Below are positions 1 through 50,169 of a DNA stretch of 50,169 nucleotides, piece by piece; the first letter of the stretch is position 1, and each line of letters starts with the position of its first letter. The notes beneath the pieces were generated by a model. It had not been told where the DNA came from and did not search any database. It was given only the letters and a program-made list of their open reading frames with translations. Origin of the DNA: a virus; IMG/VR virus record IMGVR_UViG_3300037311_000346. One strand, 5' to 3'. The translations under genes were made by a program, and so were the position numbers.

Positions 1-127
1 CCTTGTCGGAGCCGGGCTGTATCCGAGGGAACGGAAAGCCGTCGAGCGTGATCGAGTGCGTCCGGAAGACCGAGTGCGAGGCGCCCTCGAGATCGATGTG
101 GAACGCGTAGCCCGGGTTCACGAACCA
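1..127. repeat. Terminal overlap, copy 1. It is identical to 50043-50169 and marks circular closure of the contig.
   Basis: Direct comparison: ccttgtcggagccgggctgtatccgagg...gtagcccgggttcacgaacca is present at both window ends, 127 nt with no mismatch seen. Confidence 0.95.
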
Positions 128-4284: not shown

Positions 4285-4808
4285 GATCGGGTTCCTCCGT
4301 GAGGAAGGTGGCTTTGTCGGATGAGCTCGTCGGCGAGGGCGAGCGCGGTCGCGACCATCTGCGTCGCGGCGTCGCCGCTCGTGCGGTCGGCCCCGTTTGC
4401 GAGCAGCCCGCCGAGGAGTTGCGTTGCAATTTGGAGCCTCTCCAGCCGTCGCGTTTCCGCGGACTCGAAGAGGTCGCGCCCGGACGCCGTGACCGCGCGC
4501 TCTCGCGGCTGCCCGTTCGACATCCCGCGCCCCGGAGAAAGCGCGACGGCCTCCTCGCTGACCGCGGGCGCGGGCTTCGGCTGCGCCGTCGGCCGACTTT
4601 CTGCCTCGAAGACGGCGGACTCCGGAACGCCGAGAGCGTCCGAGACCAAGCGGCGCGTCTCCGCCCTCTTCGGATACTGCCCGAGCGACTCCCAGCGAAC
4701 GACCTGGCCTCGGTGGACGCCGGCCGCAGCGGCGAGCGCCTCGACGGTCAGCCCTCGGGCGATCCTTGCGGCGGCGAGCGCCTCTCGCTTGCGGTTGGAG
4801 CGTGTCAC
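4281..4808 (-). CDS. XRE/Cro-CI-type helix-turn-helix regulator
   Basis: N-terminal ALAAARIARGLTVEALAAAAGVHRGQVVRWESLGQYPKRAETRRLVSDALGV fits an HTH_3-like pattern. GTGA coupling to the upstream gene. Confidence 0.7.
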   Translation of the reverse strand: MTRSNRKREALAAARIARGLTVEALAAAAGVHRGQVVRWESLGQYPKRAETRRLVSDALGVPESAVFEAESRPTAQPKPAPAVSEEAVALSPGRGMSNGQPRERAVTASGRDLFESAETRRLERLQIATQLLGGLLANGADRTSGDAATQMVATALALADELIRQSHLPHGGTRS

Positions 4809-7271: not shown

Positions 7272-7756
7272 GAGGCGCCTCCGGCGGCTTCGTCGTCCGG
7301 CTTCGCGCACGCGCGGAAAACCGGCCCGAGCTTGCCGCGAACGCTCTCGACGATCTGCAGGATGCGCGCGAAGTCCGCGTCGGCTGCTGCGAAGGTCTCG
7401 AGGATCCGCGCCCGCTCGTCGGCCCGCGCGCCGGCGAGGTCCCGGCTCTTCGCCCGCCGCACGCTCGCCTGCAGCGCCTGCCGCTGCTTGCGCAGCTCCT
7501 CGATGTCGCGGCGCACCAGCGCGGCCTCGGCCTCGTAGTGGCGCCAGGCCCGCTCCTTCGTCGCGTAGGCGCGCAGGATCGACCAGGGGTCCAAGACCTC
7601 GCCGCACTTCCGGCACTCGACCGATCGCGTCGCGTCGATCACGGCGAAGCTCGGATGCGAGCAGCGCGCGCGCGACTCGTCGAGCGCCGTCTCCGGCTCC
7701 GTCGCTGGCCGGGGGAACCGGATCAGATTCCCGGCCTCGTTCGGTTGGTCGCTCAC
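7268..7756 (-). CDS. Hypothetical zinc-ribbon / coiled-coil protein
   Basis: CSHPSF...ECRKCGEVLD followed by a heptad-like EAEAALVRRDIEELRKQRQALQASV. GTG 7756 overlaps the upstream stop. Confidence 0.55.
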   Translation of the reverse strand: MSDQPNEAGNLIRFPRPATEPETALDESRARCSHPSFAVIDATRSVECRKCGEVLDPWSILRAYATKERAWRHYEAEAALVRRDIEELRKQRQALQASVRRAKSRDLAGARADERARILETFAAADADFARILQIVESVRGKLGPVFRACAKPDDEAAGGAS

Positions 7757-8709
7757 GCCCGCGCCTCCTCGAGCCGCGCTCGAAGGCCAGGAAGCGCCGC
7801 GCGCCACGCCGCCACGCCGCCGTCGACGATCGAGCCCGGCACGAGATCCGGGGCCTTAACGACGAGGGCCTCGAAGCGCGCCAGGGCCGCGTCGACGGAG
7901 CCGAAGCGCCCGGTCATCTCGCGCCGCGCTGCGCCGCGCCGACGCGCGTCCGCGCCCAGCGCCCATGCGACGGCGCGCTCCAGGTCGTAGTCCCAGAGCC
8001 CGAGCCCGAGCGGCTCGAAAGGCATCCGCGCGCTCGGTCCGCTGGTGTCGGCCGGGCCTGGGGGCGCCGCCGCGCTCGTAGTCGCGGCGTCGAGGAAGCC
8101 GCCGCGCGCGGCCTCGACGAGCCATCCCGCCGGCGTGCGCGCCGCGCGAGCCCGCTCGCGCAGGCGCCCGGCCTCCGCCTCCGGGTCCTTCGCCTGCGCG
8201 AGGAAACTCGCGACCGCCTCGACCGTTTGCTGACGGCGCGGCGCGCCGACGCCGAGCTCCGCGACCAGCGCGATCGCCTCCTCCGCCGCTCGGAGGTGAG
8301 GTTCTTCTCTCCTTCCCTCTCCTTCTGTGGTCCGCAGCGGACCCGATGTGGGTCCGGAGCGGACCCGATCGGGCTCGAAGCGGACCCGGTTCACGTCGAC
8401 GATCGGGTCCGGAGCGGACCCGGTTCGTCGCCAGAAGACTACGGCGAAGCGGCGCCCGTCGATGTCGCGGCGTCGCCAGACTCCGGCCGCGACGAGCTCG
8501 CGGACGTAGCCCGAGACCTTCGACCGGCCGGCGTGCCAGAGCTCGCCGAGGTAGCCGTGGGATGCGAACGTCTCGCCGACCGAGTAGAAGCGCGCCTGCA
8601 CGAACGCCGCGAAGCGTGCGGCGTTGACGGAGACGCCGCGCGCGACGATCTCCTCGACCTCCAGGTAGCGCCAGGCGCCGCCGCCGGACTCCTCCGATTT
8701 GCCTCCCAT
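7753..8709 (-). CDS. Putative replication initiator / DNA-binding protein with an internal repeat array
   Basis: Track ORF 7753..9288 trimmed to ATG 8709, preceded by GGAGGAGG. HTH-like SHGYLGELWHAGRSKVSGYVRELVAAGVW. Iteron-like repeats lie inside the coding sequence at 8329-8426, as in lambda O/ori. Confidence 0.5.
   Translation of the reverse strand: MGGKSEESGGGAWRYLEVEEIVARGVSVNAARFAAFVQARFYSVGETFASHGYLGELWHAGRSKVSGYVRELVAAGVWRRRDIDGRRFAVVFWRRTGSAPDPIVDVNRVRFEPDRVRSGPTSGPLRTTEGEGRREEPHLRAAEEAIALVAELGVGAPRRQQTVEAVASFLAQAKDPEAEAGRLRERARAARTPAGWLVEAARGGFLDAATTSAAAPPGPADTSGPSARMPFEPLGLGLWDYDLERAVAWALGADARRRGAARREMTGRFGSVDAALARFEALVVKAPDLVPGSIVDGGVAAWRAALPGLRARLEEARA
8329..8426. repeat. Iteron-like array, a candidate replication origin
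   Basis: The 17-nt palindrome GGGTCCGGAGCGGACCC occurs at 8350-8366 and 8405-8421. A variant TGGTCCGCAGCGGACCC is at 8329-8345. AGCGGACCCG(A/G)T occurs four times in total. A polypyrimidine tract at 8301-8327 is adjacent. Confidence 0.7.
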
Positions 8710-16322: not shown

Positions 16323-17003
16323 TCAGGCAACGCGCATCGCCACCAGCGCAGGGCTGCCGCTGCCCGCGCGCACGGCCGCGACAATCGGGTTCGGGAACGC
16401 GCCGTAGGTGACGAGGGCCTCCAGGCCGGTCGGAACCAGTAGCTGGCCAGCGGGCTGCGGCAGCCACGTCGAGATGCCGTTTGCCGACGCGACGCCGCGG
16501 AAGAAGGTCATGTGGCTGCTTTTCGCGAAGGCCGAGAAGTACCAGCCCGCCCGGAGCGTGATCGCGACGGAGGCGGAGACCATGCCGGTCGCCGCGCAGG
16601 AGAGCGCGCCGGAGTCGATGAGCAGCGCTCCGGGCGTTCCGCTCGCAGCGGCGTAGATGCCGACCCGCGCCGTGCCGGCGGCGATCGCGGTCGTGACCTC
16701 GAACGAGAGCTCGTCGATCGCGACCGGACGCGGGACGAAGAAGGGCGAGAGGAAGATCGTTCCGGTGCCCGGGTTCAGCGCCGAGGCCGCGCCCGTGACC
16801 TGCTGCATGAGGTAGCGGGAGCCCGTGACGTAGCCGGGGTGCATGTGCTCGGCCCCGACGAGCTTCCCGCCGGCCGTCGCGCCGTCGCCGAGGTAGAGCC
16901 GCGTCTCGTCGGTCGCCACGAGCAGCTCGCCGACGTCGGGCGTCTGCGCAAGGCGGTTCGCCTCAAGCCCGCGAAGGAGCTGGATCTTGGTCGTGTCCGC
17001 CAC
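16323..17003 (-). CDS. Tail fibre protein with an Mtd-N / hyaluronidase-N-like N-terminal motif
   Basis: TKIQLLRGLEANRLAQTPDVGELLVATDETRLYLGDGATAGGK. GTG 17003 abuts the stop of the J-like gene. Confidence 0.65.
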   Translation of the reverse strand: MADTTKIQLLRGLEANRLAQTPDVGELLVATDETRLYLGDGATAGGKLVGAEHMHPGYVTGSRYLMQQVTGAASALNPGTGTIFLSPFFVPRPVAIDELSFEVTTAIAAGTARVGIYAAASGTPGALLIDSGALSCAATGMVSASVAITLRAGWYFSAFAKSSHMTFFRGVASANGISTWLPQPAGQLLVPTGLEALVTYGAFPNPIVAAVRAGSGSPALVAMRVA

Positions 17004-40716: not shown

Positions 40717-42201
40717 TCAGGTGGCGGAGGCGAACACGCGGTGATGGACGGGCGCGGCGATCGCGCAGGCGAGAGCGTCCGCGAGGTCGGGCGAGTGACC
40801 GAGGGCGGCGACGATCTCCTCCTTCGGCGTGATGACCATCTTCTCGAGCCGATCGTACTCGTACCCGAACTGCTGGAGCTCGGTCCAGAGGTCGGCCCAG
40901 CGGTCGGAGACGGACAGCCTCCCGCGCTCGAGCATGATACGCAGCGCCCAGAAGAGCTCCGCGCGCCGGTTCTTGAACTTGGCCTCCTCGCCGACGAGGT
41001 CGGCAAACTCGCCGGTCGGCCCGGAGCCGAAGTCCACCGCGGTCACGCGGTGCCCGAGCTCGCGGAGACGGTCGATGACGCCCGCCCCCATCCCGATGTC
41101 GATCGCGATGGCGTGCGACGGGACGCCCCAGCTCTTCGCCGCGCGAAGGACCCGGCGCGCGCTCTCCATCAGATCCTTGCCGCGCCAGACCGCGATCTGC
41201 GCCACGCGGCCGTTCCGGAGGAGCACGGCTACGGAGCGGTCAGAGCCCTTGCGCGCGATGTCGACGCCCATCCGGACCTCGTTGGTCTCGGGCGTCCAGA
41301 ACCGCGCGCGGTCGAGGATCCAGAGCGGGAAGAGCGAATCGTCTCCCTCGACCGGGTAGACGCCGCGGACGTAGGCCGCCCAGCGCGGATCCTGCTCCTC
41401 GTTGGGCCCGTACTTGCGCCGCTGCTTCTCGATCCACTCCCGGGACACCAGGCGCTCGGGCGCGTCGAACGCCGAGACCTGGAAGTGCGCGAAGTCGGCC
41501 GAGCGGTGCGCCTCGTACGCGCGCCCGCGCCTCCGCGTCGGGTTCGTGATGTAGACCAGCTTCGAGTCGCGCCCGGTCAGGAAGCCGTCGAGCGCGTCCA
41601 TGATCTCGTCGCCCACGCCCGACGCCTCGTCGACGAGAACTAGGATGCCTCCCTCGTGCTCGTTCTCCTGGAAGACGTCGGCCATCGAGTGGAAGCCGCG
41701 GACGTTGTCGGGCTTGTCGGACGAGAAGCCGTAGCCGTACCACGCCGGCCCGAGCTCGACCTTGGTTGTCAGGCACCGCCCGAGCAGAGGGCGCTTCGCG
41801 AGCGCGTACCGCTGTCGGACGTTGCGCCAGAGGACCTGCTCCACCTGGTTGAAGGTCGACGACGTCGAGACCACGACGCCGTTCTCGCGGCTCTCGAGCC
41901 ACCACGGGACGACGATCGAGGCGGCGAAGGTCTTGCCGACACCTCGGCTCGCGATCGCCTCCGTCTGGGCGTTCGCGGCGATCTTCCGCAGCAGCCCGAC
42001 CTGGCCTTCGTGTCCGGTCGGCGAGTCCTCTGGGCCCCAGACGTAGCAGCCGAGGACATCGCGCGCGAAGCCGACCGGGTCGTCGCGGTACTCCGGGTAG
42101 AGCGCCTTGCTACGGGCTCCGAGCTTCCGGTCGAGTCCCTGCGAGACCGCCGCCCAGGAGCTCGCGATCAATCCGCCCGCATACGGCGAGAGCCAGCTCA
42201 C
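40717..42201 (-). CDS. terL: Terminase large subunit
   Basis: ASRGVGKTFAA (Walker A), ILVLVDEASG (Walker B), GVDIARKGSDRSV and DLADAL (nuclease-domain acidic residues). Confidence 0.9.
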   Translation of the reverse strand: MSWLSPYAGGLIASSWAAVSQGLDRKLGARSKALYPEYRDDPVGFARDVLGCYVWGPEDSPTGHEGQVGLLRKIAANAQTEAIASRGVGKTFAASIVVPWWLESRENGVVVSTSSTFNQVEQVLWRNVRQRYALAKRPLLGRCLTTKVELGPAWYGYGFSSDKPDNVRGFHSMADVFQENEHEGGILVLVDEASGVGDEIMDALDGFLTGRDSKLVYITNPTRRRGRAYEAHRSADFAHFQVSAFDAPERLVSREWIEKQRRKYGPNEEQDPRWAAYVRGVYPVEGDDSLFPLWILDRARFWTPETNEVRMGVDIARKGSDRSVAVLLRNGRVAQIAVWRGKDLMESARRVLRAAKSWGVPSHAIAIDIGMGAGVIDRLRELGHRVTAVDFGSGPTGEFADLVGEEAKFKNRRAELFWALRIMLERGRLSVSDRWADLWTELQQFGYEYDRLEKMVITPKEEIVAALGHSPDLADALACAIAAPVHHRVFASAT

Positions 42202-42793
42202 GCGGCGCCTCCTCGGTCACGATCGACGCGAACCGCGCGAGGATCGCGACGAGGTCCCGCGCAGAGATCGCCGTCGCGCCCTTCATCCGCAGGTCCCAGA
42301 CCTTCTCCTGCCGGCGCGCCATCTCCTCGACCTGGTAGCCGAAGTCCCGGAGCGCCGCGTCCTCGGACGCCCCGCGCTTCAGATGCGCTCCGAGGGCCGA
42401 GAGCGACGCGGCGAGCTCCTGGGGCGAGCCGGCGCTGCGGCACGTCTCGAAGAGCTGTACGGCCGTGTCGCGGAAGCCGGGCGTGTCGAGCTCCTCGACG
42501 CGTTGCGCCGAGCGCCGGAGCAGCGTCTCGCGCAAGGCGAGCGTCTCCGAAAGGTTGGCGAGCTCGCCGACGTCCTCGAGCGCCTCGGCGTAGAACTGCC
42601 CGAGGATCCTCGGGAGCCGCGTCGAGTACCGGCCGTGAACGATCGGCCGGCCGTTCGAGGTGCCTCCGTGGTAGCGGCAGGTCTCGCGCCCGGCCACCTT
42701 CGGCCGACCGCAGCGCTGCCCGGTGGTCTTCGACTTCGCTCGGCATCGCCTCGGCTCGTCTCCGTCCTCGTAGGTGGGTCCCTTCTTTCCCAT
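42110..42793 (-). CDS. Putative small terminase / HGGxSTG-like zinc-binding protein
   Basis: CRAKSKTTGQRCGRPKVAGRETCRYHGGTSNG. Lies immediately upstream of TerL. GAGGAG SD. The 3' end overlaps the annotated TerL start by 92 nt, and there the TerL frame has the higher GC3. Confidence 0.5.
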   Translation of the reverse strand: MGKKGPTYEDGDEPRRCRAKSKTTGQRCGRPKVAGRETCRYHGGTSNGRPIVHGRYSTRLPRILGQFYAEALEDVGELANLSETLALRETLLRRSAQRVEELDTPGFRDTAVQLFETCRSAGSPQELAASLSALGAHLKRGASEDAALRDFGYQVEEMARRQEKVWDLRMKGATAISARDLVAILARFASIVTEEAPRELALAVCGRIDRELLGGGLAGTRPEARSP

Positions 42794-42858
42794 CGGGTTC
42801 CGCTCCTCGCTCCGGGATCCTACGACTCGCCGTCGGCCCGCGCGAGCAAGGCCGCGCG

Positions 42859-43119
42859 CTAGTTCAGGCTCGCGTCGATCCGCGCGAGCATCGCCTCCGC
42901 CGCGCCTCGCTCGATCGCGTCGACGACCATCGCCGCGTCCTCGAACATCACCGCGACCGCCACGTCCAGGTACCAGCCGAGCTTCTCGCCGTGCAGGCCC
43001 TTCGGCAGGTAGTAGAACCGCAGCGCCGCCGCGTCGAATGCCCAGCCCGCACGGCCCGCGACGAGCTCCCGGAGAAGCTCGAGCCGGTAGGCGGCGACGT
43101 TGCTCGGGACGTAGCTCAC
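42859..43119 (-). CDS. Hypothetical protein (86 aa)
   Basis: The real part of track ORF 42859..43242 starts at GTG 43119 (GTGA overlap): VSYVPSNVAAYRLELLRELVAGRAGW... Confidence 0.55.
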   Translation of the reverse strand: MSYVPSNVAAYRLELLRELVAGRAGWAFDAAALRFYYLPKGLHGEKLGWYLDVAVAVMFEDAAMVVDAIERGAAEAMLARIDASLN

Positions 43120-43349
43120 CGCGCCGGGCTCCGGTCGACGATGTCCAGCGCGGCGCGGTGCTCGTCCAGGAGCGTCCAGGCCCTTGCGAGTCGGTCCAGA
43201 TCGTCGCACGCGGCGAGGCCCGGCTCGACGTCTGGGTTCCACGACTCGTGGGCGTTGACGCGACGGACCGCGTCCCAGAGGCGCTCGCGGAGGGCGCGGC
43301 GACGCGCGGCGAACTCGAAGTCGCCGACGGGGCGGAGAGCCGGCTTCAC
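43116..43349 (-). CDS. Hypothetical protein (77 aa)
   Basis: The real part of track ORF 43116..43538 starts at GTG 43349 (GTGA overlap): VKPALRPVGDFEFAARRRALRERLWDAV... Confidence 0.55.
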   Translation of the reverse strand: MKPALRPVGDFEFAARRRALRERLWDAVRRVNAHESWNPDVEPGLAACDDLDRLARAWTLLDEHRAALDIVDRSPAR

Positions 43350-43615
43350 GGCTCGACCTCTCCCTCCCGGTACATCTCGCCGCCGTGCTCGTCGCGCACG
43401 ATGAGCCCCCGGATCGTGCCGTCGAAGCACTCCGGGCGCACGTCGATCAGCTCGACGTTGCCAGCTTCGTCCGCCGCGATGACCGCGCCGATGGCCGCGG
43501 ACCTCGCGTCGGGGCACGTCGCGCGATCGTGCTCCCATGCGACGCGGACGCGGATCCGCTGGGTGAACCTTCGGACGACGATGGCTTCGACGGTCCCTCT
43601 CGCGTTGACGGCCAC
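43346..43615 (-). CDS. Hypothetical protein (89 aa)
   Basis: GTG 43615 shares 1 nt with the upstream TAG. AVNARGTVEAIVVRRFTQRIRVRVAWEHD... Confidence 0.5.
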   Translation of the reverse strand: MAVNARGTVEAIVVRRFTQRIRVRVAWEHDRATCPDARSAAIGAVIAADEAGNVELIDVRPECFDGTIRGLIVRDEHGGEMYREGEVEP

Positions 43616-43854
43616 TACCTGACCCTCCCTGTCGGCTTTGCGACGACTGACCCTGAGTTGAACGGCTCGCCCGGCTGCCAGTAGACGGGCTGCTTCGGCT
43701 CCTCGCCGACGACGGTCCCTTCGGCCGCTTCGAGCGCGGGCCGGGCGCGAGCGTCGGCCTCGCCCAGCCTTCGCAGCTTCACGACGACGGCGCCGAGCAG
43801 CCCGAGGAAGGCGACGAAGAGGAGGCCCCACGCTACGAAGTCCCGCAGCCTCAT
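43615..43854 (-). CDS. Small membrane protein (79 aa)
   Basis: MRLRDFVAWGLLFVAFLGLLGAVVVKLRRL has an N-terminal TM segment. ATG 43854 overlaps the upstream stop (ATGA). Confidence 0.6.
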   Translation of the reverse strand: MRLRDFVAWGLLFVAFLGLLGAVVVKLRRLGEADARARPALEAAEGTVVGEEPKQPVYWQPGEPFNSGSVVAKPTGRVR

Positions 43855-44609
43855 CGCCCAGCCTCCGCGCCGAGACGCCGGAACTCGACGACCCAGACCC
43901 ACGGGTTCGCCGCCCACGGCGCGCGCTTCCCGTTGATCGCGTCCCAGACCCGCACCCACTGCGAGCGAGGCGTCGGCCCGACGGCGGGCTCGCCTCCCGA
44001 GGCTGCGAGGAAGTGCTCGCGCGCGTCGTGGTAGGCGTCGTCGAGCACGCCCTCGGCCTCGATGTCGGCCGTCGTGATCGACTGGAGCCGCTCGACGCGG
44101 ACGGCGGTCACCAGCAGATTCAGGCGCGACGCCCAGCGAGGCATGTGGATCGCCGGCCGCCAACGGTCCGGCGCGGCAAGGCCGTTCGCGCGAAAGACGA
44201 TGCTGGTGTCGCGGTCGAGGTGCCAGAAATCGCCGCGCATCTCCGCCGGCGAGCAGGTGATCTCGTCGCTCTCGCCCGACCAGTACTCCGGGGCCGTGAA
44301 GGCGGCCCAGGTCTCTCGGACCCAGAGCCGATCTCCCGGCGCGCCGTACGGGCAGCGAGTGGGGAGCGGGAACGTGGTCACGAACTGGCGCTCGACCGCC
44401 TCGTCCGAGGCGCGAGGCCGGAACGCGCCTCGGTCCTCGTCCCAGCGCTCGATGCGGTCGCGGTGCGGATCCAGTCCGGCGCACTTCACGACGCGCCTCG
44501 TCTGCGTCTTCCGGCCGTCGAGGATCGCTCGGACCATCGGACCGGAGAAGAGGATCGGGCGCTCTTTCGGCGCCGTCGCGAGGCTCTCGAGGCGGCTGCG
44601 GTCGGTCAT
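43851..44609 (-). CDS. ASCH/PUA-like domain protein candidate (252 aa)
   Basis: PILFSGPMVRAILDGRKTQTRRVV...GDRLWVRETW...PAIHMPRWASRLNLLVTAVRVERLQ. Trimmed to ATG 44609 (ATGA overlap). Confidence 0.5.
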   Translation of the reverse strand: MTDRSRLESLATAPKERPILFSGPMVRAILDGRKTQTRRVVKCAGLDPHRDRIERWDEDRGAFRPRASDEAVERQFVTTFPLPTRCPYGAPGDRLWVRETWAAFTAPEYWSGESDEITCSPAEMRGDFWHLDRDTSIVFRANGLAAPDRWRPAIHMPRWASRLNLLVTAVRVERLQSITTADIEAEGVLDDAYHDAREHFLAASGGEPAVGPTPRSQWVRVWDAINGKRAPWAANPWVWVVEFRRLGAEAGR

Positions 44610-45691
44610 CGGGCGCCTCCAACGCGGAGCGCGCTCGCCGCCGGGAACTCGCGCACGCGCAGGTCCTCGGGCCACTCGGACGGGTCGCCGCCCTTCGGGC
44701 TTCGCAGGCGGTAGGTCTCGCGCGCTGGCGCCGGACGTCCGAGGACACACTCGACGTGCGGCGCCCAGCCGTGGGGCCAGGTCGACTCGTCCTGGTCGTC
44801 GAACGGGACCGCGCCGAGCTGCTTCACGAAGACCGGGACGCGCGCCGTCCGGCACTGACCGACCAGCGCGCGAATCCAGGCGACCTTGCAAGGCCGCGCG
44901 CCGGGCCCGGACTCGCCGCCGACGATCACCCAGTCGAGTGCGGTCGCGTGTTCGCGTGGCGTGATTCCCTCGCGGCGCAGCGCGTCACGAACAGCGACCG
45001 AGGGCAGCCCGGGAATCGGAATGGCCCGAAGGTTGACCGGCCCGAGCAGCGGCTCCGCGCTCACGAACCGCACCGCTGCCGGAGTCTCCAGGAGGTGCGG
45101 GATGCGATCGTCCGCGCTTGCCTGGTCCTCGACTGACGTCCCGACCCAGAGGTTCGGGAGCGGCAGCGCGTCGCACGAGCCGCGCGCGAGCGACTCGATG
45201 ACGTCCTGCGTGCGGCTCGTCTGATAGCCCGAGAACTCGCGGGCGATCGCGACGGCGAGCTTCTTGGCGCCGGGCTTCTCGGAGCGGCTCGAGAGATAGG
45301 TTCGCGCGCGCTCCGGGCGCTTCGTGAGGACCTGGAAGGTGTGCTGCGGGCAGCGCGCGACGACCGCGAGGACGCGGTCGAGCGCCTCGTCGGGGAGCGC
45401 CTCGTGGAAGAGGTCGCTCATCGAGTTGACGAAGACGCGGCGCGGCCGGCCCCACGCGAGGGGCTCCGCGAGCTTCTCCTCGATCAGCTCGACGCGGCCG
45501 GTCCAAGTGGGCTGCCAGCCGCGACCCGTCTGGAACTTGGTGCCGACGAAGCCGTGCCACGGTTGCCCCTCACGTCCGAACCTCGCCGCCTGCCGCTCTG
45601 CGTAGCACCGCTCACAGCCGCGGCTGATACGGCTACACCCACGAACCGGGTTCCACACGTCGTCGGTCCACTCGATCGTCGACCTGCTCAC
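44606..45691 (-). CDS. Phage Gp37/Gp68-family (DUF5131) protein with a three-Cys motif
   Basis: STIEWTDDVWNPVRGCSRISRGCERCYAE (C-x6-C-x2-C)...VFVNSMSDLF...WVGTSVEDQ...VSAEPLLGP...WVIVGGESG. Confidence 0.8.
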   Translation of the reverse strand: MSRSTIEWTDDVWNPVRGCSRISRGCERCYAERQAARFGREGQPWHGFVGTKFQTGRGWQPTWTGRVELIEEKLAEPLAWGRPRRVFVNSMSDLFHEALPDEALDRVLAVVARCPQHTFQVLTKRPERARTYLSSRSEKPGAKKLAVAIAREFSGYQTSRTQDVIESLARGSCDALPLPNLWVGTSVEDQASADDRIPHLLETPAAVRFVSAEPLLGPVNLRAIPIPGLPSVAVRDALRREGITPREHATALDWVIVGGESGPGARPCKVAWIRALVGQCRTARVPVFVKQLGAVPFDDQDESTWPHGWAPHVECVLGRPAPARETYRLRSPKGGDPSEWPEDLRVREFPAASALRVGGAR

Positions 45692-46089
45692 GGCGCCTCC
45701 GTCGTCGGGGGAGCGGGGAGGGGCTGGAAGTGGGTGGGCGCGGCCACGTCTTCGAAGTCGCTGCGATGCGAGTACGTCAACCAGCACGCGGGGAGTTGGC
45801 CCCAGACCGGCGCGCCCCACCATGCAAGTTGCGGCGCGCCGTCATGCGCGGCGTCGATCACGAGCACGCGCGTCCCGTCCTTCGGCGCCTCGCTGATCGG
45901 CCTCCACCGCGCCCCGTTCGGCACGATGCCGGCGGCGCGCAGGGCGGAGCGGAGCGCGTCTCGCAGGTGCCGTAGCAGCGCCGCATCACCATCGTCCCGC
46001 AGATACTCCGATGTGTCTTCGTAGTGCATCCGCAACACGGCGTGCCGCAGCGCGTCGATCTGCTCATCGCTCCACTCCGTTGCGGTCAT
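45688..46089 (-). CDS. DUF551-like protein
   Basis: ARWRPISEAPKDGTRVLVIDAAHDGAPQLAWW. Confidence 0.55.
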   Translation of the reverse strand: MTATEWSDEQIDALRHAVLRMHYEDTSEYLRDDGDAALLRHLRDALRSALRAAGIVPNGARWRPISEAPKDGTRVLVIDAAHDGAPQLAWWGAPVWGQLPACWLTYSHRSDFEDVAAPTHFQPLPAPPTTEAP

Positions 46090-46283
46090 TGGCTCGTCTC
46101 CGTGCGCTTCGCGAGCGCGGCTTCGAGTTCGCGGATGCGGGCGAGCATATACGGCACGGCGTCGAGTAGCCGCGAACGGCAGTCCCGAAGCTGACCGTAC
46201 CCCTCTGGGTTCGTGATCGCGTCAAGGTCGCGCTCCAACGCCTCCAGGTCGAGCGGCTCGCGCGGGGTGGTGGGGGTGGTCAT
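46086..46283 (-). CDS. Hypothetical protein (65 aa)
   Basis: ATG 46283 overlaps the upstream stop: MTTPTTPREPLDLEALERDLDAITNPEGYGQL... Confidence 0.5.
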   Translation of the reverse strand: MTTPTTPREPLDLEALERDLDAITNPEGYGQLRDCRSRLLDAVPYMLARIRELEAALAKRTETSQ

Positions 46284-46648
46284 CGCTTCGGTTCCTCCAG
46301 CGCGGCTCGGGCGCGAATCATCGCCATGATTTCCTTCACGACCGTCCACGAAATGAGGTGAGGATCATGCCCTTCGAGTCGGTGGTCGCACTTGTGCTCA
46401 CCGATGTATGCGGCCTTCGTCGCGCCGCTCGGTGTGAGCGCCTCCTCCAGCCTCTCGCACCGCGCCTGGGCGGCGGAGAGCGCGGACGGGTTCGCATCGA
46501 CGGACTCTGCGCACTCGACGAGCCGCTTGTCGTAGCAGTCCTCACAGAACGGCCCGACGGCGTTGATGTAGAGCGAGTCGTCGGCGCGGCCAGCCTTGCC
46601 GGTCTCTGCGTCGCACTCGCGACAGTGTTCGCGCTTCACGTCACCCAC
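46280..46648 (-). CDS. Small Cys-rich (zinc-ribbon) protein
   Basis: HCRECDAE...FCEDCYDKRLVEC. The start is GTG 46648 or GTG 46639. Confidence 0.55.
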   Translation of the reverse strand: MGDVKREHCRECDAETGKAGRADDSLYINAVGPFCEDCYDKRLVECAESVDANPSALSAAQARCERLEEALTPSGATKAAYIGEHKCDHRLEGHDPHLISWTVVKEIMAMIRARAALEEPKR

Positions 46649-46826
46649 GGCCCGAGCCTCCCTTCGCGCTGCGCTCGGACACGAGCGGCTCGCCTGTGAA
46701 CACGCGCCCCTCGGCAGCGTACGCGTCCAGCGCAACCTGCACGGCGATGGTGAGGATCCGATCGCGTTCGACGGCATCGGCCTCGGCGTCGTCGGCGTCG
46801 TCGGCGGCGGCGGTCGGGTTGGTCAT
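46641..46826 (-). CDS. Hypothetical acidic protein (61 aa)
   Basis: MTNPTAAADDADDAEADAVERDRILTIAVQVALDAYAAEG... GGAG lies upstream of ATG 46826. Confidence 0.5.
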   Translation of the reverse strand: MTNPTAAADDADDAEADAVERDRILTIAVQVALDAYAAEGRVFTGEPLVSERSAKGGSGRG

Positions 46827-46908
46827 GGTCGAGAGGCTCCTGCGCCTTGGTCGCGGCGCTACTTCTTGACGATATCGCCCGGGCGGCCGCTCGGGAAGAG
46901 CCAGCCGC

Positions 46909-47862
46909 CTACTTCTCGCAAACTTCTTCCCGTTTGCGGCGTCGATCCGGTGCGGCGACGGTCGGCTTAATCTTCTCGACTCGCGGCTCATCCTCGGGTC
47001 TCGGCTTTCGCAGCGAAGGCGACACGATCTTCGGGACGGCCTTGTTCCATTCGACGCGGTGGTGCAGACGGACGTCCGTCCGACCCATCGGTGCGATGTG
47101 AACGCAGGACGGCGCGAACATGACGGTGTAGAAGCTCTTCACGTACGTTCCGGCGGCGAGGTAGAGCTCCGTCGAGCCGCCTGCGTTGCTCTGGGTCTTG
47201 AACTGGTTGAGCTGCAGCGGCATATAGGTGAAGAACAGCGTGCCGAGCCCTCCGAGGCGGACGTAGGTGTTCACGTCCTCGTTCATCCGCCCGACGAACG
47301 AGAAGGGTTTCTCGACGTCGCAAACGAAGGAGTTCATCGCCTTTCGCTTGAGGCGGATATCGGTGTTCCCCTCGGCTCCGCCCATGTGCTCGCCGCCCTG
47401 CGAGATCGCGATGGTCGCGGTCGGCGTCGCCTCGAGGAACTCCACGAGCGCCTCGAACAGGCCGTCTAAGCCGCGGATCGCCCAGCCGTGGTAGCTGGGC
47501 TCGGCGCCCGGCTCGCGCCGACCGACGCGGCGGTAGAGCAGGTCCTGGTAGTCGTCGTCGAGCTGGACGAAGTAGCGGCAGCCAACCGACCGCACGATCG
47601 CGAAGCTTGCGTTCCGCGCGTACACGATCGACCGGCGGTCCTTGAAGTTGTCGCCCTGATCGAACGTCGCGGCGATCTGCTCCTTCGAGAACTGAAGGAC
47701 CGAAGCGCCGAACCGTCGGCGGTACTCGTCGGCGGTCGCGTCCTCGTCGTCGATCACGACGAAGACCTTCCCCGTGTAGCCCGATCGACGGAGGGTTTCG
47801 ATCGTCACGACCCGGTCCGCGCGGCCGTGCGAAAGGATCAGGACGCAGAAGTCGTCACGCAT
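46909..47862 (-). CDS. GT-A-like glycosyltransferase candidate (317 aa)
   Basis: CVLILSHGRADRVVT (first beta strand), VFVVIDDED, YARN, YFVQLDDDY (DxD), GRMNEDVNTY, SNAGGSTELY. Locally lower G+C than the rest of the genome. Confidence 0.6.
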   Translation of the reverse strand: MRDDFCVLILSHGRADRVVTIETLRRSGYTGKVFVVIDDEDATADEYRRRFGASVLQFSKEQIAATFDQGDNFKDRRSIVYARNASFAIVRSVGCRYFVQLDDDYQDLLYRRVGRREPGAEPSYHGWAIRGLDGLFEALVEFLEATPTATIAISQGGEHMGGAEGNTDIRLKRKAMNSFVCDVEKPFSFVGRMNEDVNTYVRLGGLGTLFFTYMPLQLNQFKTQSNAGGSTELYLAAGTYVKSFYTVMFAPSCVHIAPMGRTDVRLHHRVEWNKAVPKIVSPSLRKPRPEDEPRVEKIKPTVAAPDRRRKREEVCEK

Positions 47863-48655
47863 CGGGGTAGTCCTTTCCGAACTGCTCGTCGACGCGAGCG
47901 TTCAACCGCACGAACCCGGAGGCGATCGCGTCGTCGAAGTCGACGATGACGAGCGCCGACCGCTCCATCAGGCGCTGCAGGTCCGGCCCCGCGTGAGCGT
48001 AGAAGTTGGCGATCCGGTCGTAGCGAAAGACGACGTGACGGCGCGCCGCCTCAAGAAGGAACGCCCGGACGTCGTCGGGAAGGTCCGCCTCGCCGATCTC
48101 GCGTGCGAGTTCGTCCGCGCGAGTCCGGTCGAACATCTCGCCGACCGCCGGCGCCGGGCCCGACGGCTCGTAGACCGGCCGCTCGACCTTCTGGGTATAG
48201 GCGCCCTCGCCCGTTCCCTTCGAGCCGCCTTCGAGGCCCTCGAGAATCTCCCGGACGTCGGCGTCCGAGAAGCCGGTCGCCGCCAGCACCTCCGGGCTCT
48301 CGTCGCCAATCGCCGACAGGGTCGCCGCGAGAACGTCCTCGTCCCACTCCGCGAGCTCGGCCGTCCGGTTGTCGGCGATGGCGAAGCCGCGCGCTTCGAC
48401 GCCGTCGAGGTCCGCCGGGACCGTCGCGATGTCGGTCCAGCCGAGCGCCTTCGCGGCGCGCAGCGTCCCGTTGCCGGCGAGGACGACGCCCGACTCCGTG
48501 ACGACGATCGGCTTCCGCTGACCGTAGGCGCGCAGGCTCGCCTTGATCGCCTCGAGGTTGGTCGGGCCGTGCTTCCGGGCGTTCGCCGGGTCCTCCGAGA
48601 GGTCGGCGATCTTGCGGACGCGGATCTCGGAGACGAGGAGCGGTCGGTCGGTCAT
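47855..48655 (-). CDS. ParB-like nuclease (ParB/Srx) domain protein without a recognisable methylase domain
   Basis: VRKIADLSEDPANARKHGPTNLEAIKASLRAYGQRKPIVVTESGVVLAGNGTLRAAKALGW. Track ORF 47855..49375 trimmed to ATG 48655. Confidence 0.75.
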   Translation of the reverse strand: MTDRPLLVSEIRVRKIADLSEDPANARKHGPTNLEAIKASLRAYGQRKPIVVTESGVVLAGNGTLRAAKALGWTDIATVPADLDGVEARGFAIADNRTAELAEWDEDVLAATLSAIGDESPEVLAATGFSDADVREILEGLEGGSKGTGEGAYTQKVERPVYEPSGPAPAVGEMFDRTRADELAREIGEADLPDDVRAFLLEAARRHVVFRYDRIANFYAHAGPDLQRLMERSALVIVDFDDAIASGFVRLNARVDEQFGKDYPDA

Positions 48656-48768
48656 GGCGGCGAAGTGGGGCCCGGCGGTCGAAAGAGACGGCCGTCGGGC
48701 CCCGGGATTCCGCCGCGGCTGCTGTCGCCGCGGTCCATGACGGGACTCCCTTCGGACGTCGAGTCGTT

Positions 48769-50169
48769 CTAACTGGAGAGCGCCCGGGCGATTCCGAGCA
48801 GCGCCTCGCGGTTGCGGAGGAGGTGCGGCGTCTTCTCCGCGGTTTCGATCGCGGCGCCGAGCGAGAGCAGCGGGCCGCCGCCCGAGAGGTGCTGCCGGAT
48901 CCGACGGACGACGAGCTCGTCCGAGGCGCCGGCGAGCGCGAGGCGTATCGCGAGCGTGTAGCCGACGTGGTAGGACGAGCCCTCCGGCGAGACCCAGGGC
49001 AGCTCGTCCCAGCTTGAGAACGGCGCGCCGTGGTGCCTTGCGACCGCGAACAGGTACGGAGGCGAGGCGCGGTCGGGCGCCCAGTGGACCTCGAGCGCCG
49101 CCCGCGTCGACCGCTCGATCGCGTCGCGGAGGTCCAGGCCCTCGACGCCGGTCGCGCAGCCGATCTGCAGCAGGGCGAACGCCCCCGCGTCGACGATCGT
49201 CGACTGGTAGGACTGCGCGGCGTCGACCGGCTCGTCCGCGCCCTCGCTCGCGCGCGCCACCTCCTTGTTCCTTTGGTTGTCCCAGCGCAGCACGCTCCCG
49301 TGCGGAAACTGCCCGAGCGCGTAGGTCCCGGCGAAGTCCTCGCCCCAGGCGAACGCGCGCGCCGTTCCGTTGCACGCGAAGTCGTGGGCCTGGGCGAACG
49401 CGATCCAGCCCTCGGAGCGGGTGAAACGGACGCCGTCTTTCGGCCCGTAGAGCGCGCCCGCTGGCTGCTCGTAGTCCGTCCGGTAGGCGGAGCCGAACCA
49501 GCGGAGGATCCGCTGCGCCAGCGGGTCGTTCCAGAACGTGACGAGCGCGACAGCCTTCCCGAAGGCGCGGATCCCGTGCGCCGCGTCCGGAGAGCCGGTC
49601 AGCTCCTGCTCCGCCTCGTCGAGGCCGCCGAGTCCCTCCGGCCCGTTGCGCGCGCCGTGGCGGAAGCGGAACGGGTCGCCGCTCTCCGAGGGCCAGCAGT
49701 CCGAGACCGCCTCGCCCGCCGGCGCGGGGCCGATGACCATGTTCAGCGAGCGCGAGGCGTTGCCCTGCGCGCGCCAGAGCCCGATCTCGAAGGGCGAGTC
49801 GTCCTCGGCGGCGATGAAGCCGCGCGACCGCACAAGATAGGCGCGCTCGACCTCGTCGAGGAAGCGGAACGTCCGCGAGCTCCGCGTCAGGTACTCGAGG
49901 ACGCCCGGCGAGTGCTCGATCGCGTCGCCGCCCGTCCTTCCGCCCCAGCGGGAGTCCGCCGAGTGGTACCAGCCGAGCAGGCCGTGGACCTGGTCTGGGT
50001 GCTTCGCGCCCGTGCGCGCGCGGTAGAGGAACTCGCCCATCTCCTTGTCGGAGCCGGGCTGTATCCGAGGGAACGGAAAGCCGTCGAGCGTGATCGAGTG
50101 CGTCCGGAAGACCGAGTGCGAGGCGCCCTCGAGATCGATGTGGAACGCGTAGCCCGGGTTCACGAACCA
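48769..50169 (-). CDS. Large hypothetical protein, C-terminal part. The gene wraps the window junction and is 731 aa in total when joined to 1..922.
   Basis: ORF track 48769..50163. The frame is open to 50169 and continues in phase at 128..922 after removing the 127-nt duplicate. Normal amino-acid composition, rich in W/F/Y/H. Stop TAG at 48769-48771. Confidence 0.8.
   Translation of the reverse strand, partial: WFVNPGYAFHIDLEGASHSVFRTHSITLDGFPFPRIQPGSDKEMGEFLYRARTGAKHPDQVHGLLGWYHSADSRWGGRTGGDAIEHSPGVLEYLTRSSRTFRFLDEVERAYLVRSRGFIAAEDDSPFEIGLWRAQGNASRSLNMVIGPAPAGEAVSDCWPSESGDPFRFRHGARNGPEGLGGLDEAEQELTGSPDAAHGIRAFGKAVALVTFWNDPLAQRILRWFGSAYRTDYEQPAGALYGPKDGVRFTRSEGWIAFAQAHDFACNGTARAFAWGEDFAGTYALGQFPHGSVLRWDNQRNKEVARASEGADEPVDAAQSYQSTIVDAGAFALLQIGCATGVEGLDLRDAIERSTRAALEVHWAPDRASPPYLFAVARHHGAPFSSWDELPWVSPEGSSYHVGYTLAIRLALAGASDELVVRRIRQHLSGGGPLLSLGAAIETAEKTPHLLRNREALLGIARALSS
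50043..50169. repeat. Terminal overlap, copy 2. It is identical to 1-127.
   Basis: Same 127-nt string as at the window start. It lies inside an open reading frame. Confidence 0.95.

Follow-up and report, generated by a model that had tools for sequence, protein, structure and literature searches.

A probable two-gene cassette of a TAGT/GREB1-related glycosyltransferase and a YnaK-like partner heading the packaging operon of a phage genome

DNA bases are glycosylated by GT-A enzymes of the TAGT family (PMC13216743; bioRxiv 10.1101/2023.12.21.572611), and ParB homologues activate phage enzymes that modify DNA bases, namely dioxygenases acting on double-stranded DNA (PMC13229309). Hypermodification clusters combine a ParB homologue, a 5mYOX, and a glycosyltransferase (GT); among the surveyed 5mYOX contigs, 31% carried a GT, 27% a ParB, and 19% a terminase (PMC13229309; PMC8256090; bioRxiv 10.1101/2023.12.21.572611). 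In published structure comparisons, the phage GT-A DNA glycosyltransferases group with JGT, the trypanosome base-J glucosyltransferase (bioRxiv 10.1101/2023.12.21.572611). This work examines a viral DNA stretch of 50,169 nucleotides (IMG/VR record IMGVR_UViG_3300037311_000346; referred to here as the window), in which an initial annotation made from the sequence had proposed an eight-gene DNA-modification island.

The window ends in a 127-bp terminal repeat; the contig is therefore circular and complete and represents a phage genome of ∼50,042 bp. The proposed island (43851 to 48655) had been described as eight consecutive, mostly overlapping genes. The ORFs, their coordinates, and their overlaps were confirmed: all lie on the minus strand with a coding-type GC3 of 0.82 to 0.92, and overlaps join the ParB-like and GT ORFs (8 nt, ATGCGTGA), the 65-aa and DUF551-like ORFs (ATGA), the DUF551-like and DUF5131 genes (GTGA), and the DUF5131 and ASCH-like genes (ATGA). 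However, nine ORFs rather than eight were called by GC3, and the tight coupling runs on past the stretch through four further small genes, up to the terminase. Gene overlap is thus not specific to these eight genes but reflects general operon packing. The stretch probably comprises accessory genes heading the packaging operon of a siphovirus-type genome of ∼50 kb, rather than one pathway.

The GT (46909..47862, minus strand; 317 aa) is a GT-A enzyme related to TAGT and GREB1, and the DxD motif and 8-nt overlap reported for it were both found. It matches PF20691 (TAGT) over the full profile (2e-33; 116 bits versus a cutoff of 27.5) as well as phrog_842 (9e-72), and it contains LDDDY and NEDVNTY motifs. 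More than 7,000 homologues were retrieved, the nearest at 64 to 66% identity. Residues R14, D38, D41, D102-D103-D104-Y105, N194, D196, and Y200 are among those invariant across 21 diverse relatives, while the C-terminal tail beyond approximately residue 287 is basic and poorly conserved. The GC content of the gene is 64.4%, compared to 71.6% for the genome.

Immediately upstream lies the partner gene (47855..48655, minus strand), which had been annotated as a ParB/Srx-fold protein. This assignment holds: the protein matches phrog_620 (3e-44), and its AlphaFold model (pLDDT, 86) matches the N-terminal CTPase domains of Noc, ParB, and KorB (E = 1e-6), even though the PF02195-type Pfam ParB_N match is below threshold (21.5 bits versus 26.3). 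The ParB/Srx-fold domain and an adjoining helical segment span residues 1 to 145 (48221..48655, minus strand). In an alignment to Noc, the GERRWRA box is replaced by GNGTLRA. The nearest HMMs to the ParB_N domain are the N termini of phage DNA methyltransferases (phrog_498, 1e-31; PADLOC MTase_II, 2e-17), and the partition ParB model TIGR00180 scores below cutoff (25.8 versus 58.45). Residues 146 to 266 (47858..48220, minus strand) form a C-terminal domain (CTD) region, in which a conserved motif, Y-T-x-K-[IV]-x-x-P-[IV]-Y-E-P, lies in a disordered linker and is followed by a helical domain with the signature FLxxAAxRH..YAH..Q.L.E.SALVIIDF. AlphaFold assigns the CTD a pLDDT of 82 to 98 and the preceding linker (residues 144 to 158) a pLDDT of <50. 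No Pfam family matches the CTD, even at E ≤ 10. Grouped at 50% identity, the CTD family yields 1,147 clusters; among the best 150 matches listed, the domain sits at or near the C terminus.

To place these genes in context, 82 loci encoding GT relatives and, separately, 80 DUF5131 loci were surveyed. In 80 to 81 of the 82 loci, the partner gene immediately precedes the GT, and no other neighbor is conserved. Divergence of the ParB-like protein is correlated with that of the GT (Mantel r = 0.73, a value reached by 0 of 2,000 permutations). An HMM built for the CTD places this domain in the gene just ahead of the GT in 80 of 82 loci. ParB_N is fused to the partner in only ∼25 of these 80 (∼30%) and is found nowhere in 50 of them; Vibrio phage pv27, for instance, encodes a 139-aa, CTD-only partner (E = 2e-49). 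Judged from these sequences, the invariant companion of the GT is the helical CTD of ∼115 aa and not ParB_N, the ParB/Srx module being optional in the wider family. The initial annotation had missed that the conserved element of the partner is its CTD.

Phages of Lactobacillus, Nocardia, and Vibrio carry the pair, and 889 of 5,426 complete Escherichia coli genomes (∼16%) hold an intact copy in Rac-like prophages. The terminase is the next most common neighbor and usually follows shortly downstream of the pair (a 24-locus cluster whose representative matches Terminase_6N/6C, the neighbor Pfam screen covering the best 25 of 75 families). The pair directly precedes TerS/TerL in the E. coli Rac-like phages and in Lactobacillus gasseri phage phi jlb1, stands three small ORFs ahead of TerL in two contigs (L001 and L002), and lies ∼3 kb upstream of TerL in the haloarchaeal virus HHTV-2. 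In a T4-like Vibrio phage, it is located between primase/exonuclease and helicase genes. In some relatives, the partner gene is followed by two TAGT genes in tandem, an arrangement resembling the sequential-GT pathways of DNA glycans (bioRxiv 10.1101/2023.12.21.572611). The sole robust functional unit of the stretch is therefore likely to be a two-gene cassette of the YnaK-like partner and the translationally coupled TAGT/GREB1-related enzyme, with the GT as its probable catalytic half. This pair is widespread, yet the CTD family of the partner is uncharacterized, as is the function of the E. coli ynaK cassette.

The same survey bears on the proposal that all eight genes form one novel DNA-modification pathway, in which DUF5131 would make the acceptor, the GT would glycosylate it, and the ASCH-like protein would read or edit the product. 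The genes are contiguous, codirectional, and overlapping, every domain type has been linked to nucleic acid modification, and DUF5131 adjoins DNA methyltransferases in RcapNL and in Gordonia phage Jambalaya. The co-occurrence data contradict this scheme: of the 82 GT loci, one has DUF5131 nearby and none has the ASCH-like, DUF551-like, or small proteins; and neither the GT nor the ParB-like protein is near DUF5131 in any of the 80 DUF5131 loci. The cassette also stands alone in related genomes, as the annotations of phi jlb1 and the Rac-like E. coli phage, read across the whole genome, and of the 19 kb surrounding the HHTV-2 pair list neither DUF5131 nor ASCH. With the overlap pattern extending to the terminase, we regard a single eight-gene pathway as highly improbable. 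Six of the eight genes thus fail the co-occurrence test for an island, and the initial proposal is supported only in part, by the TAGT membership of the GT and its pairing with the ParB-like gene. For those six, the competing suggestion of a loose collection of unrelated genes comes closer to the truth, aside from a facultative pairing of the DUF5131 and ASCH-like genes.

The DUF5131 (Gp37/Gp68) protein (44606..45691, minus strand) belongs to the radical-SAM superfamily, whose subgroups include DUF5131 (PMC9477430). As initially annotated, it is a three-Cys protein: it matches PF07505 at 6e-80, and its C19-x6-C26-x2-C29 motif is invariant in 78 to 79 of 79 relatives. The downstream gene (43851..44609, minus strand) had been called ASCH/PUA-like and coupled by ATGA. 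The coupling, the PUA-like fold, and the name of a 42%-identical homologue ("ASCH domain-containing protein" at NCBI) agree with that call, whereas no Pfam family, ASCH included, matches even at E ≤ 10. The protein matches phrog_874 (7e-67) and carries large insertions. Its top 13 Foldseek PDB matches are all ASCH proteins, including YqfB (probability, 0.93 to 1.0; E, ∼8e-3; model pLDDT, 66). Its invariant residues are G32, K34, T37, R38, E99, and E186-G187, which may include counterparts of the ASCH/YqfB catalytic triad. Of the 80 DUF5131 loci, 12 have an ASCH-like gene no more than 6 kb away; these genes form the most common codirectional neighbor cluster (10 loci), occupying the next ORF in 6. 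The DUF5131 and ASCH-like genes probably constitute a further pair, facultative and unconnected with the GT cassette.

The remaining genes appear in neither set of loci. The DUF551-like protein (45688..46089, minus strand; 133 aa) matches PF04448 below threshold (17.1 bits versus a cutoff of 22; E = 0.01; profile positions 10 to 68 of 68), so the DUF551 label holds only at that level, and it occurs in none of the 82 GT loci or 80 DUF5131 loci. Three small minus-strand ORFs (46086..46826), identified from GC3-based gene calls and translations, match no family and are likewise absent from all 82 and 80 related loci. They had been described as small Zn proteins; the 119-aa ORF (46280-46639) does contain one CxxC..CxxC ribbon, but the 61-aa (46641-46826) and 65-aa (46086-46283) ORFs have no Cys pattern. 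Together with the DUF551-like gene, these ORFs are most plausibly lineage-specific filler, conserved with neither module.

A different target for the GT would be a host cell-envelope glycan, remodeled for superinfection exclusion much as the prophage GT TarP acts on wall teichoic acid, with the ParB-like neighbor unrelated. TarP is the best PDB structural match of phage GT-A DNA glycosyltransferases (bioRxiv 10.1101/2023.12.21.572611), and the pair is common in prophages. The initial annotation had named a best match to envelope glycosyltransferases as refuting; instead, TAGT is the sole Pfam family matched, with no match to Glycos_transf_2 or other envelope-GT families. The GT is also obligately coupled to its partner gene, the cassette sits in a late/packaging operon and not beside an integrase or attachment site, and it occurs in a large T4-like Vibrio phage and an archaeal virus. 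An envelope role is accordingly quite improbable.

We tentatively propose that the pair carries out late, postreplicative glycosylation of phage DNA, with the partner as a ParB-type targeting or activating factor. The two proteins would be produced late, shortly ahead of packaging. The CTD and linker motif would bind the GT, activating it or lending it specificity, and ParB_N, where present, would load or target the complex onto double-stranded phage DNA. The GT would then move a sugar from a nucleotide-sugar onto the replicated DNA, which would shield that DNA from host nucleases. The targeting step has parallels in phage DNA methyltransferases that carry a fused ParB_N and in the activation of phage thymine dioxygenases by ParB homologues. 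Since ParB_N is missing from most partners, ParB DNA loading cannot be the general mechanism, and the degenerate nucleotide-binding box (GNGT for GERR) also counts against a DNA role. Furthermore, canonical DNA offers no acceptor hydroxyl, and the phage-GT survey deems GT contigs without 5mYOX or ThyS less obviously DNA directed (bioRxiv 10.1101/2023.12.21.572611).

By Pfam, no methyltransferase, TET/JBP dioxygenase, thymidylate-synthase-like enzyme, kinase, or hydroxymethylase was detected in the whole complete genome, extending what had been reported for the stretch, and the first three are missing from the complete genomes of phi jlb1 and the Rac-like phage as well. With 5mYOX and ThyS absent genome-wide and no enzyme making 5hmC or 5hmU encoded, the acceptor cannot be a classical hydroxymethyl-pyrimidine. 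A very divergent dioxygenase may exist among three suitably sized window proteins lacking annotation (7753-8709, 318 aa; 3607-4284, 225 aa; and a 731-aa junction gene).

Phage GTs also glycosylate virions, as in mycobacteriophages. By analogy with this, or with the O-GlcNAcylation of ER-alpha by GREB1, the cassette could glycosylate protein rather than DNA, the target being either the Y-T-x-K-x-x-P-x-Y-E-P motif in the partner's own linker or a protein of packaging or of the virion encoded by the adjacent genes. GREB1 shares its superfamily with the GT and transfers O-GlcNAc to protein (PMC7968844), and the E. coli orthologue is named "GREB1-related protein" by PGAP. Consistent with a protein target, no enzyme generating a DNA acceptor is encoded, a disordered linker with a conserved motif rich in Tyr/Thr leads into the invariant CTD, and the cassette adjoins terminase and head genes. 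On the other hand, DNA-modifying members define the Pfam family (PMC13216743), the ParB_N carried by ∼30% of partners most resembles the N termini of DNA methyltransferases from phages, and in Vibrio phages the pair is embedded in the replication module, distant from head genes. We consider a protein target unlikely on balance, though a serious alternative to DNA glycosylation.

Compared with known systems, the pair shares a GT-A TAGT-type transferase and frequent nearness to terminase with the hypermodification clusters; 5mYOX, C5-methyltransferase, and ThyS are absent here and in the other complete genomes with the pair. Like the dioxygenase-activating ParBs (PMC13229309), the partner is predicted by AlphaFold to consist of a nucleotide-binding domain, helices, a disordered linker, and a CTD, with no HTH. 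The published ParBs, however, largely retain the NTP-binding residues that GNGT replaces here, and ParB176 requires both its nucleotide-binding domain and CTD, whereas here the CTD alone is universal (the CTDs being compared by description). The founding TAGT enzyme, the T2/T6 beta-glucosyl-HMC-alpha-glucosyltransferase, shares PF20691, phrog_842, the GT-A fold, and DxD-type motifs with the GT. This similarity is at the profile level only, no T-even phage being among the 34 tblastn matches. The T6 enzyme extends glucosyl-5hmC supplied by a dCMP hydroxymethylase and alpha-GT pathway that is absent here, and no ParB/CTD partner is described for the T2/T6 enzyme. JGT requires 5hmU made by JBP, and GREB1 acts on protein (PMC7968844); by description, neither has a CTD partner.

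For the second pair, the nearest counterparts are systems in which DUF5131/Gp37-Gp68 goes with a three-Cys-motif partner (TcmP), along with the PADLOC candidates PDC-M41/M30. Shared features are the strong PF07505 match, the C-x6-C-x2-C motif, and matches to PDC-M41B and PDC-M30B; TIGR04471 scores far below cutoff, and in place of a TcmP or methyltransferase-like partner, the neighbor here is ASCH-like, as in 12 of 80 relatives. E. coli YqfB, an ac4C amidohydrolase, corresponds to the ASCH-like protein in fold, and a GRKTxTRR motif and invariant Glu are present. The ASCH-like protein is twice the size of YqfB-type proteins, with large insertions, and matches neither Pfam ASCH nor any PDB chain at the sequence level.

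Phage ParB_N-DNA methyltransferase fusions (phrog_498; PF02195 plus PF01555) contain the ParB_N subtype closest to that of the partner and likewise join ParB_N to a DNA-modifying activity, which is putative here; in our pair, the enzyme, a glycosyltransferase, is encoded as a polypeptide of its own, with a dedicated CTD between. Lastly, ynaK and the "GREB1-related protein" gene of the E. coli Rac prophage form a homologous cassette. Among the titles of 21 papers mentioning ynaK, none deals with its function. E. coli K-12 keeps only a remnant of this cassette. The Rac cassette differs from ours in host and phage backbone, but its GT is 54 to 55% identical over 91% of the query, its partner likewise consists of ParB_N plus CTD, and the next genes downstream of the cassette are a small ORF and TerS/TerL.

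The eight consecutive genes at 43851-48655 of the window had been read in the initial annotation as one candidate DNA-modification island. Their ORFs, their overlaps and most of the domain calls are borne out here, and the stretch contains a conserved, coupled two-gene unit that is independent of the other six genes: a YnaK-like, ParB-like protein (the partner; 47858-48655, minus strand), comprising a ParB_N half and a C-terminal domain (CTD), and a GT-A glycosyltransferase of the TAGT family (GT; 46909-47862, minus strand). The 4-nt overlaps run on past the stretch, through four further small genes towards the small and large terminase genes (TerS and TerL), and the overlap is thus general operon packing rather than an island hallmark. 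Scanning 42000-50169 for promoters and terminators yielded no coding-strand candidate and did not exceed the expectation from shuffled sequence.

Co-occurrence was surveyed in 82 loci (80 from viral contigs and 2 from metagenomes) encoding GT relatives of 40 to 66% identity, a set biased to the closest relatives reachable by peptide-pattern search. By tblastn, the gene immediately 5' of the GT encodes a relative of the ParB-like protein in 81 of the 82 loci, the exception being a GT at a contig edge. DUF5131 (the Gp37/Gp68 gene of the stretch, 44606-45691, minus strand) is near the GT in a single locus, 9 kb off, and relatives of the ASCH-like protein (43851-44609, minus strand), the DUF551-like protein and the small proteins were found in none. 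When co-directional ORFs within four ORFs of the GT were clustered, only the −1 gene was universal; the next commonest cluster (24 loci) is the large terminase, its representative matching Terminase_6N/6C. A TerL tblastn panel, some of whose queries are unverified, was positive in at least 26 of 59 loci, and terminase proximity is accordingly based on the 24-locus cluster and on annotated phages. For 111 representatives of neighbour clusters (≥150 aa, same strand, within four ORFs of the GT), no TET/JBP, thymidylate-synthase-like or methyltransferase family appeared among the best 25 of 75 families matched. The reciprocal survey, 80 loci around DUF5131 relatives, retrieved neither GT nor ParB. 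The ASCH-like protein lies within 6 kb of DUF5131 in 12 of these 80 loci versus 0 of the 82 GT loci (Fisher p = 1e-4, with host taxonomy confounding the comparison); it is the most frequent co-directional neighbour cluster of DUF5131, and in 6 loci its ORF follows DUF5131 directly downstream, the order seen in the window. The stretch can thus be divided into partner and GT, which are an obligate pair, DUF5131 with the ASCH-like protein, which are a facultative one, and unconserved filler. That all eight genes serve one pathway, as their contiguity in the window had suggested, is hardly credible when only the partner stays with the GT across the 82 loci.

DUF5131 is clear-cut (PF07505, 268.7 bits against a cut-off of 28.9; 6e-80), and the C-x6-C-x2-C motif noted earlier is invariant in its relatives, with C19, C26 and C29 conserved in 78 to 79 of 79. 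The family is a listed subgroup of the radical-SAM superfamily (PMC9477430). TIGR04471 (radical SAM mobile pair protein A) scores 36.5 bits against a cut-off of 355, and a TcmP-type partner is absent next to DUF5131: the adjacent genes encode the DUF551-like and ASCH-like proteins, neither of which matches TcmP or a PADLOC partner model. The ASCH call fails at the sequence level, as the protein has no Pfam match to PF04266 at E ≤ 10, no PDB match with a single sequence or a 41-sequence profile, and no BLASTP alignment to a YqfB sequence, so that a Lys-Thr-Glu triad is putative. At the fold level it gains tentative support: the 13 best Foldseek PDB matches of a model of moderate confidence (pLDDT 66) are all ASCH proteins (YqfB, PH0355, ZmASCH and EF3133), with probabilities of 0.93 to 1.0 and a target-normalised TM of up to 0.74 at an E of only ~8e-3, and one homologue is named "ASCH domain-containing" by NCBI. 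The DUF551 assignment is sub-threshold, with PF04448 at 17.1 bits (cut-off 22; E = 0.01) although the match spans positions 10-68 of the 68-position profile, and the description of small Zn proteins applies to one small ORF with a zinc-ribbon Cys pattern and not to the others. In two cultured phages, RcapNL (L173, 3513-7199) and Gordonia phage Jambalaya (L174, 2999-4578), genes annotated as DNA methyltransferases adjoin DUF5131 or are close to it, which hints at a nucleic-acid-modification role of its own. Given these neighbours, and given the ac4C amidohydrolase that ranks first among fold matches of the ASCH-like protein, both proteins probably act on nucleic acid too; nothing ties either of them to the cassette.

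Within the partner, the CTD is the element that accompanies the GT. Short partners (130 to 160 aa), the majority, align only to residues ~150 to 266 of the window protein and not to ParB_N, and ParB_N was rejected as the conserved partner element for this reason. With separate HMMs for the two halves, the CTD was located immediately before the GT in 80 of 82 loci; ~25 loci have a partner with ParB_N fused to it, and in 50 no part of the locus encodes ParB_N. The CTD matches no Pfam family even at E ≤ 10. Its family comprises 1147 clusters at 50% identity and, among the 150 best matches listed, it sits at or near the C-terminus of proteins of 134 to 433 aa. AlphaFold predicts a confident helical domain with an unpaired hydrophobic segment (SALVIIDF), preceded by a disordered linker that bears a conserved motif, Y-T-x-K-[IV]-x-x-P-[IV]-Y-E-P, in alignment and model. 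Divergence of the partner is correlated with that of the GT (Mantel r = 0.73, a figure to which shared phage ancestry contributes).

The ParB/Srx fold assigned earlier to the window protein is upheld by PHROG matches, by phmmer to Noc (3e-5) and by the AlphaFold model (pLDDT 86), which Foldseek matches to the N-domains of Noc, ParB and KorB (E = 1e-6, probability 1.0); Pfam ParB_N reaches 21.5 bits, just under its cut-off of 26.3. The partner is not a partition ParB, since GNGTLRA aligns to Noc GERRWRA at box II (the CTP-binding/hydrolysis motif GERRxRA), TIGR00180 (partition ParB) scores 25.8 versus a cut-off of 58.45, and no HTH family is matched in Pfam. By HMM, its ParB_N is nearest to the N-termini of phage DNA methyltransferases (phrog_498, 1e-31; PADLOC MTase_II, 2e-17).

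The GT-A call can be sharpened to full-length membership of PF20691 (TAGT, TET-associated glycosyltransferase; 116.3 bits, cut-off 27.5, profile positions 3-205 of 205) and of phrog_842 (9e-72). Its motifs are R14, D102-D103-D104-Y105 and N194-E195-D196-V197, and these residues, E195 excepted, are at least 95% conserved among 21 relatives. Phage DNA GT-A enzymes have been defined by R ... DDD ... ED[Y/F] (bioRxiv 10.1101/2023.12.21.572611); the third motif here is EDV, not EDY/F. The family is unusually conserved (57 to 66% identity among the best 120 database matches), and the GT gene has the lowest GC in the genome (64.4% versus 71.6%). As read from composition and identity, this combination suggests either strong constraint or recent horizontal acquisition. 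A PDB sequence search with the GT or DUF5131 gave nothing usable, and a GT search of genome contigs for host assignment and prophage spread matched only 5 MAG contigs, too few to be informative.

Window bases 1-127 are an exact direct repeat of 50043-50169; the assembly is therefore circular and the genome complete at 50,042 bp. That the window might be a fragment hiding an off-window methyltransferase or TET was rejected, as it is a closed circle, and this makes it meaningful that methyltransferase, TET and ThyS genes are missing. PF12851, thymidylate-synthase-like and methyltransferase models gave zero matches in the ~58 proteins of the complete genome. In Pfam and PHROG searches of the whole genome, no protein matched an integrase, a DNA polymerase, a methyltransferase, TET/JBP, a thymidylate-synthase-like enzyme or a kinase, extending genome-wide the earlier remark that no methyltransferase, TET, hydroxymethylase or kinase was seen. 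The dioxygenase result depends on PF12851, a model that does not detect every phage 5mYOX enzyme (PMC13229309), and three unannotated window proteins are large enough for a cryptic dioxygenase: those at 7753-8709 and 3607-4284 and the product of the 731-aa junction gene. By these searches, the genome of the GT is without a hydroxymethyl-pyrimidine source, be it a TET/JBP 5mYOX or a dNMP hydroxymethylase with a primary GT.

The genome has a GC content of 72%, with all credible genes on the minus strand in a GC3-based gene call. Pfam and PHROG searches of all called proteins identified siphovirus-type structural genes (capsid, portal, Mu-F and GpJ-like tip), as well as a YqaJ exonuclease, RusA, HNH, an HTH protein, an SMC-like ATPase and a sulfatase. 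Directly upstream of the ParB-like gene, a 731-aa ORF crosses the assembly junction (48769-50042 joined to 1-922, minus strand), and neither half matches Pfam or PHROG. The large terminase (40717-42171) has zero Pfam matches; the presumed small terminase (42110-42793, minus strand) matches the HGGxSTG motif domain NF041373 below cut-off and PHROG weakly. The sulfatase (PF00884, 1e-26; 2306-3517, minus strand) adjoins an HNH-like ORF (1852-2304) and is unusual phage cargo, possibly an auxiliary or host-surface-directed enzyme. At 4281-6298 (minus strand), a 497-aa SMC/AAA-like ATPase comes after an HTH protein; PADLOC matches the ATPase to mad3 over most of its length and to GajA/PtuA/AriA N-termini, and its role may lie in defence, anti-defence or recombination. 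The protein at 16323-17003 (minus strand) has an Mtd_N (major tropism determinant N-terminal) domain, as does a relative with the GT cassette (L001, 10312-10638); no reverse transcriptase was seen.

The cassette extends well beyond this genome. It occurs in Rac-like E. coli phages, a Salmonella phage, L. gasseri phi jlb1, L. delbrueckii phages, Nocardia phage NTR1, 191-kb T4-like Vibrio phages and the haloarchaeal virus HHTV-2, usually among DNA-transaction genes of packaging or replication. The order in the annotated Rac-like phage is lysis genes, trkG, partner, GT, small ORF, TerS and TerL, and that in phi jlb1 is partner, GT, TerS and TerL; in HHTV-2, TerL follows ~3 kb downstream of the pair. 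Vibrio phage pv27 (OR413349.1; L175, 6459-7888) encodes a 139-aa CTD-only partner (E = 2e-49) with its GT inside the replication module, between primase/exonuclease and helicase. This phage also encodes thymidylate synthase and DHFR, and the reading for hydroxymethylase genes covered 50 of its 191 kb. For the Rac-like phage and phi jlb1, the full annotation lists neither a dioxygenase nor a hydroxymethylase nor a methyltransferase; the cassette is thus present in complete genomes without any known 5hmC/5hmU source. The E. coli partner is ynaK in PGAP, described there as a "ParB/Srx family N-terminal domain-containing protein," and recent PGAP annotation names the GT "GREB1-related protein" (e.g., NZ_CP023820.1, 1563269-1564985; L083, 7217-8933). 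An intact pair was found in 889 of 5426 complete E. coli genomes, in Rac-like prophages, and K-12 derivatives retain only a 254-nt ynaK remnant adjoining ydaY.

Taken together, the "solitary" TAGTs include a large and highly conserved subfamily that always has company: a small helical CTD accompanies it, ParB_N is sometimes fused, and the usual site is the entrance of the packaging operon. In the mechanism we propose, the CTD would be an obligatory GT-binding adaptor or activator, ParB_N, where fused, would add DNA targeting, and phage DNA would be the substrate, modified late, after replication. DNA may well be the target of the GT, a reading that we hold tentatively. Among the members of PF20691 is the T2/T6 enzyme, which extends glucosyl-5hmC by a second glucose (PMC13216743; PMC13390438), and phage GT-A enzymes with R..DDD..EDY/F glycosylate 5hmC and resemble the base-J glucosyltransferase (bioRxiv 10.1101/2023.12.21.572611). 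It is unlikely that the cassette alone glycosylates canonical DNA (at a base heteroatom, DNA end or backbone) with no prior hydroxymethylation. If true, this would be a new post-replicative chemistry spread over bacterial and archaeal viruses, unnoticed in Rac-like prophages of about one-sixth of complete E. coli genomes.

A protein target is a less likely alternative, though a serious one: GREB1, the namesake of the E. coli GT annotation, is a protein O-GlcNAc transferase (PMC7968844), and on the other side stand the DNA-modifying members of PF20691 and the replication-module setting in Vibrio phages. Envelope remodelling is a very improbable role for a full-length TAGT coupled to this partner. 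A DNA target would add both to what is known of phage DNA-modification chemistry and to the known roles of ParB-fold proteins; with a protein target, a family automatically annotated as DNA glucosyltransferase would be misnamed on a large scale. Either way, the cassette is a concrete two-component system for testing, and the ynaK/GREB1-related pair of Rac-like E. coli prophages, being homologous, offers a tractable model.

Function is undefined for the "solitary" TAGT of 288 of 753 TAGT-encoding phages (PMC13216743; PMC13390438), and ~65% of GT-A contigs have no 5mYOX or ThyS nearby (bioRxiv 10.1101/2023.12.21.572611). A survey of the ParB-CTPase fold describes phage fusions to methyltransferases and PUA-like domains, and "glycosyl" occurs nowhere in its text (bioRxiv 10.1101/2025.10.10.680097); our literature search found no paper on the CTD-GT pairing. 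In a work cited in a passage of PMC8256090, ParB proteins are suggested to direct modification enzymes to DNA during packaging. Among the closest known counterparts is the ParB-dependent 5mYOX system, in which one subclass of phage thymine dioxygenases must be activated on dsDNA by ParB homologues that have a nucleotide-binding domain, a linker and a CTD and lack an HTH; phage 5mYOX genes most often have GT, ParB and terminase genes as neighbours (PMC13229309). The AlphaFold model of the partner predicts such a layout (nucleotide-binding domain, short helices, unstructured linker, CTD and no DNA-binding domain), a likeness of layout only. In that system, however, the cognate Fe/2OG dioxygenase lies beside ParB, whereas here the neighbours are the 731-aa protein and the GT, with no PF12851. 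In some relatives the partner gene is followed by two TAGT genes in tandem (L177, 9220-11705; L179, 8370-10840), an arrangement that recalls the sequential-GT pathways building disaccharides on DNA bases.
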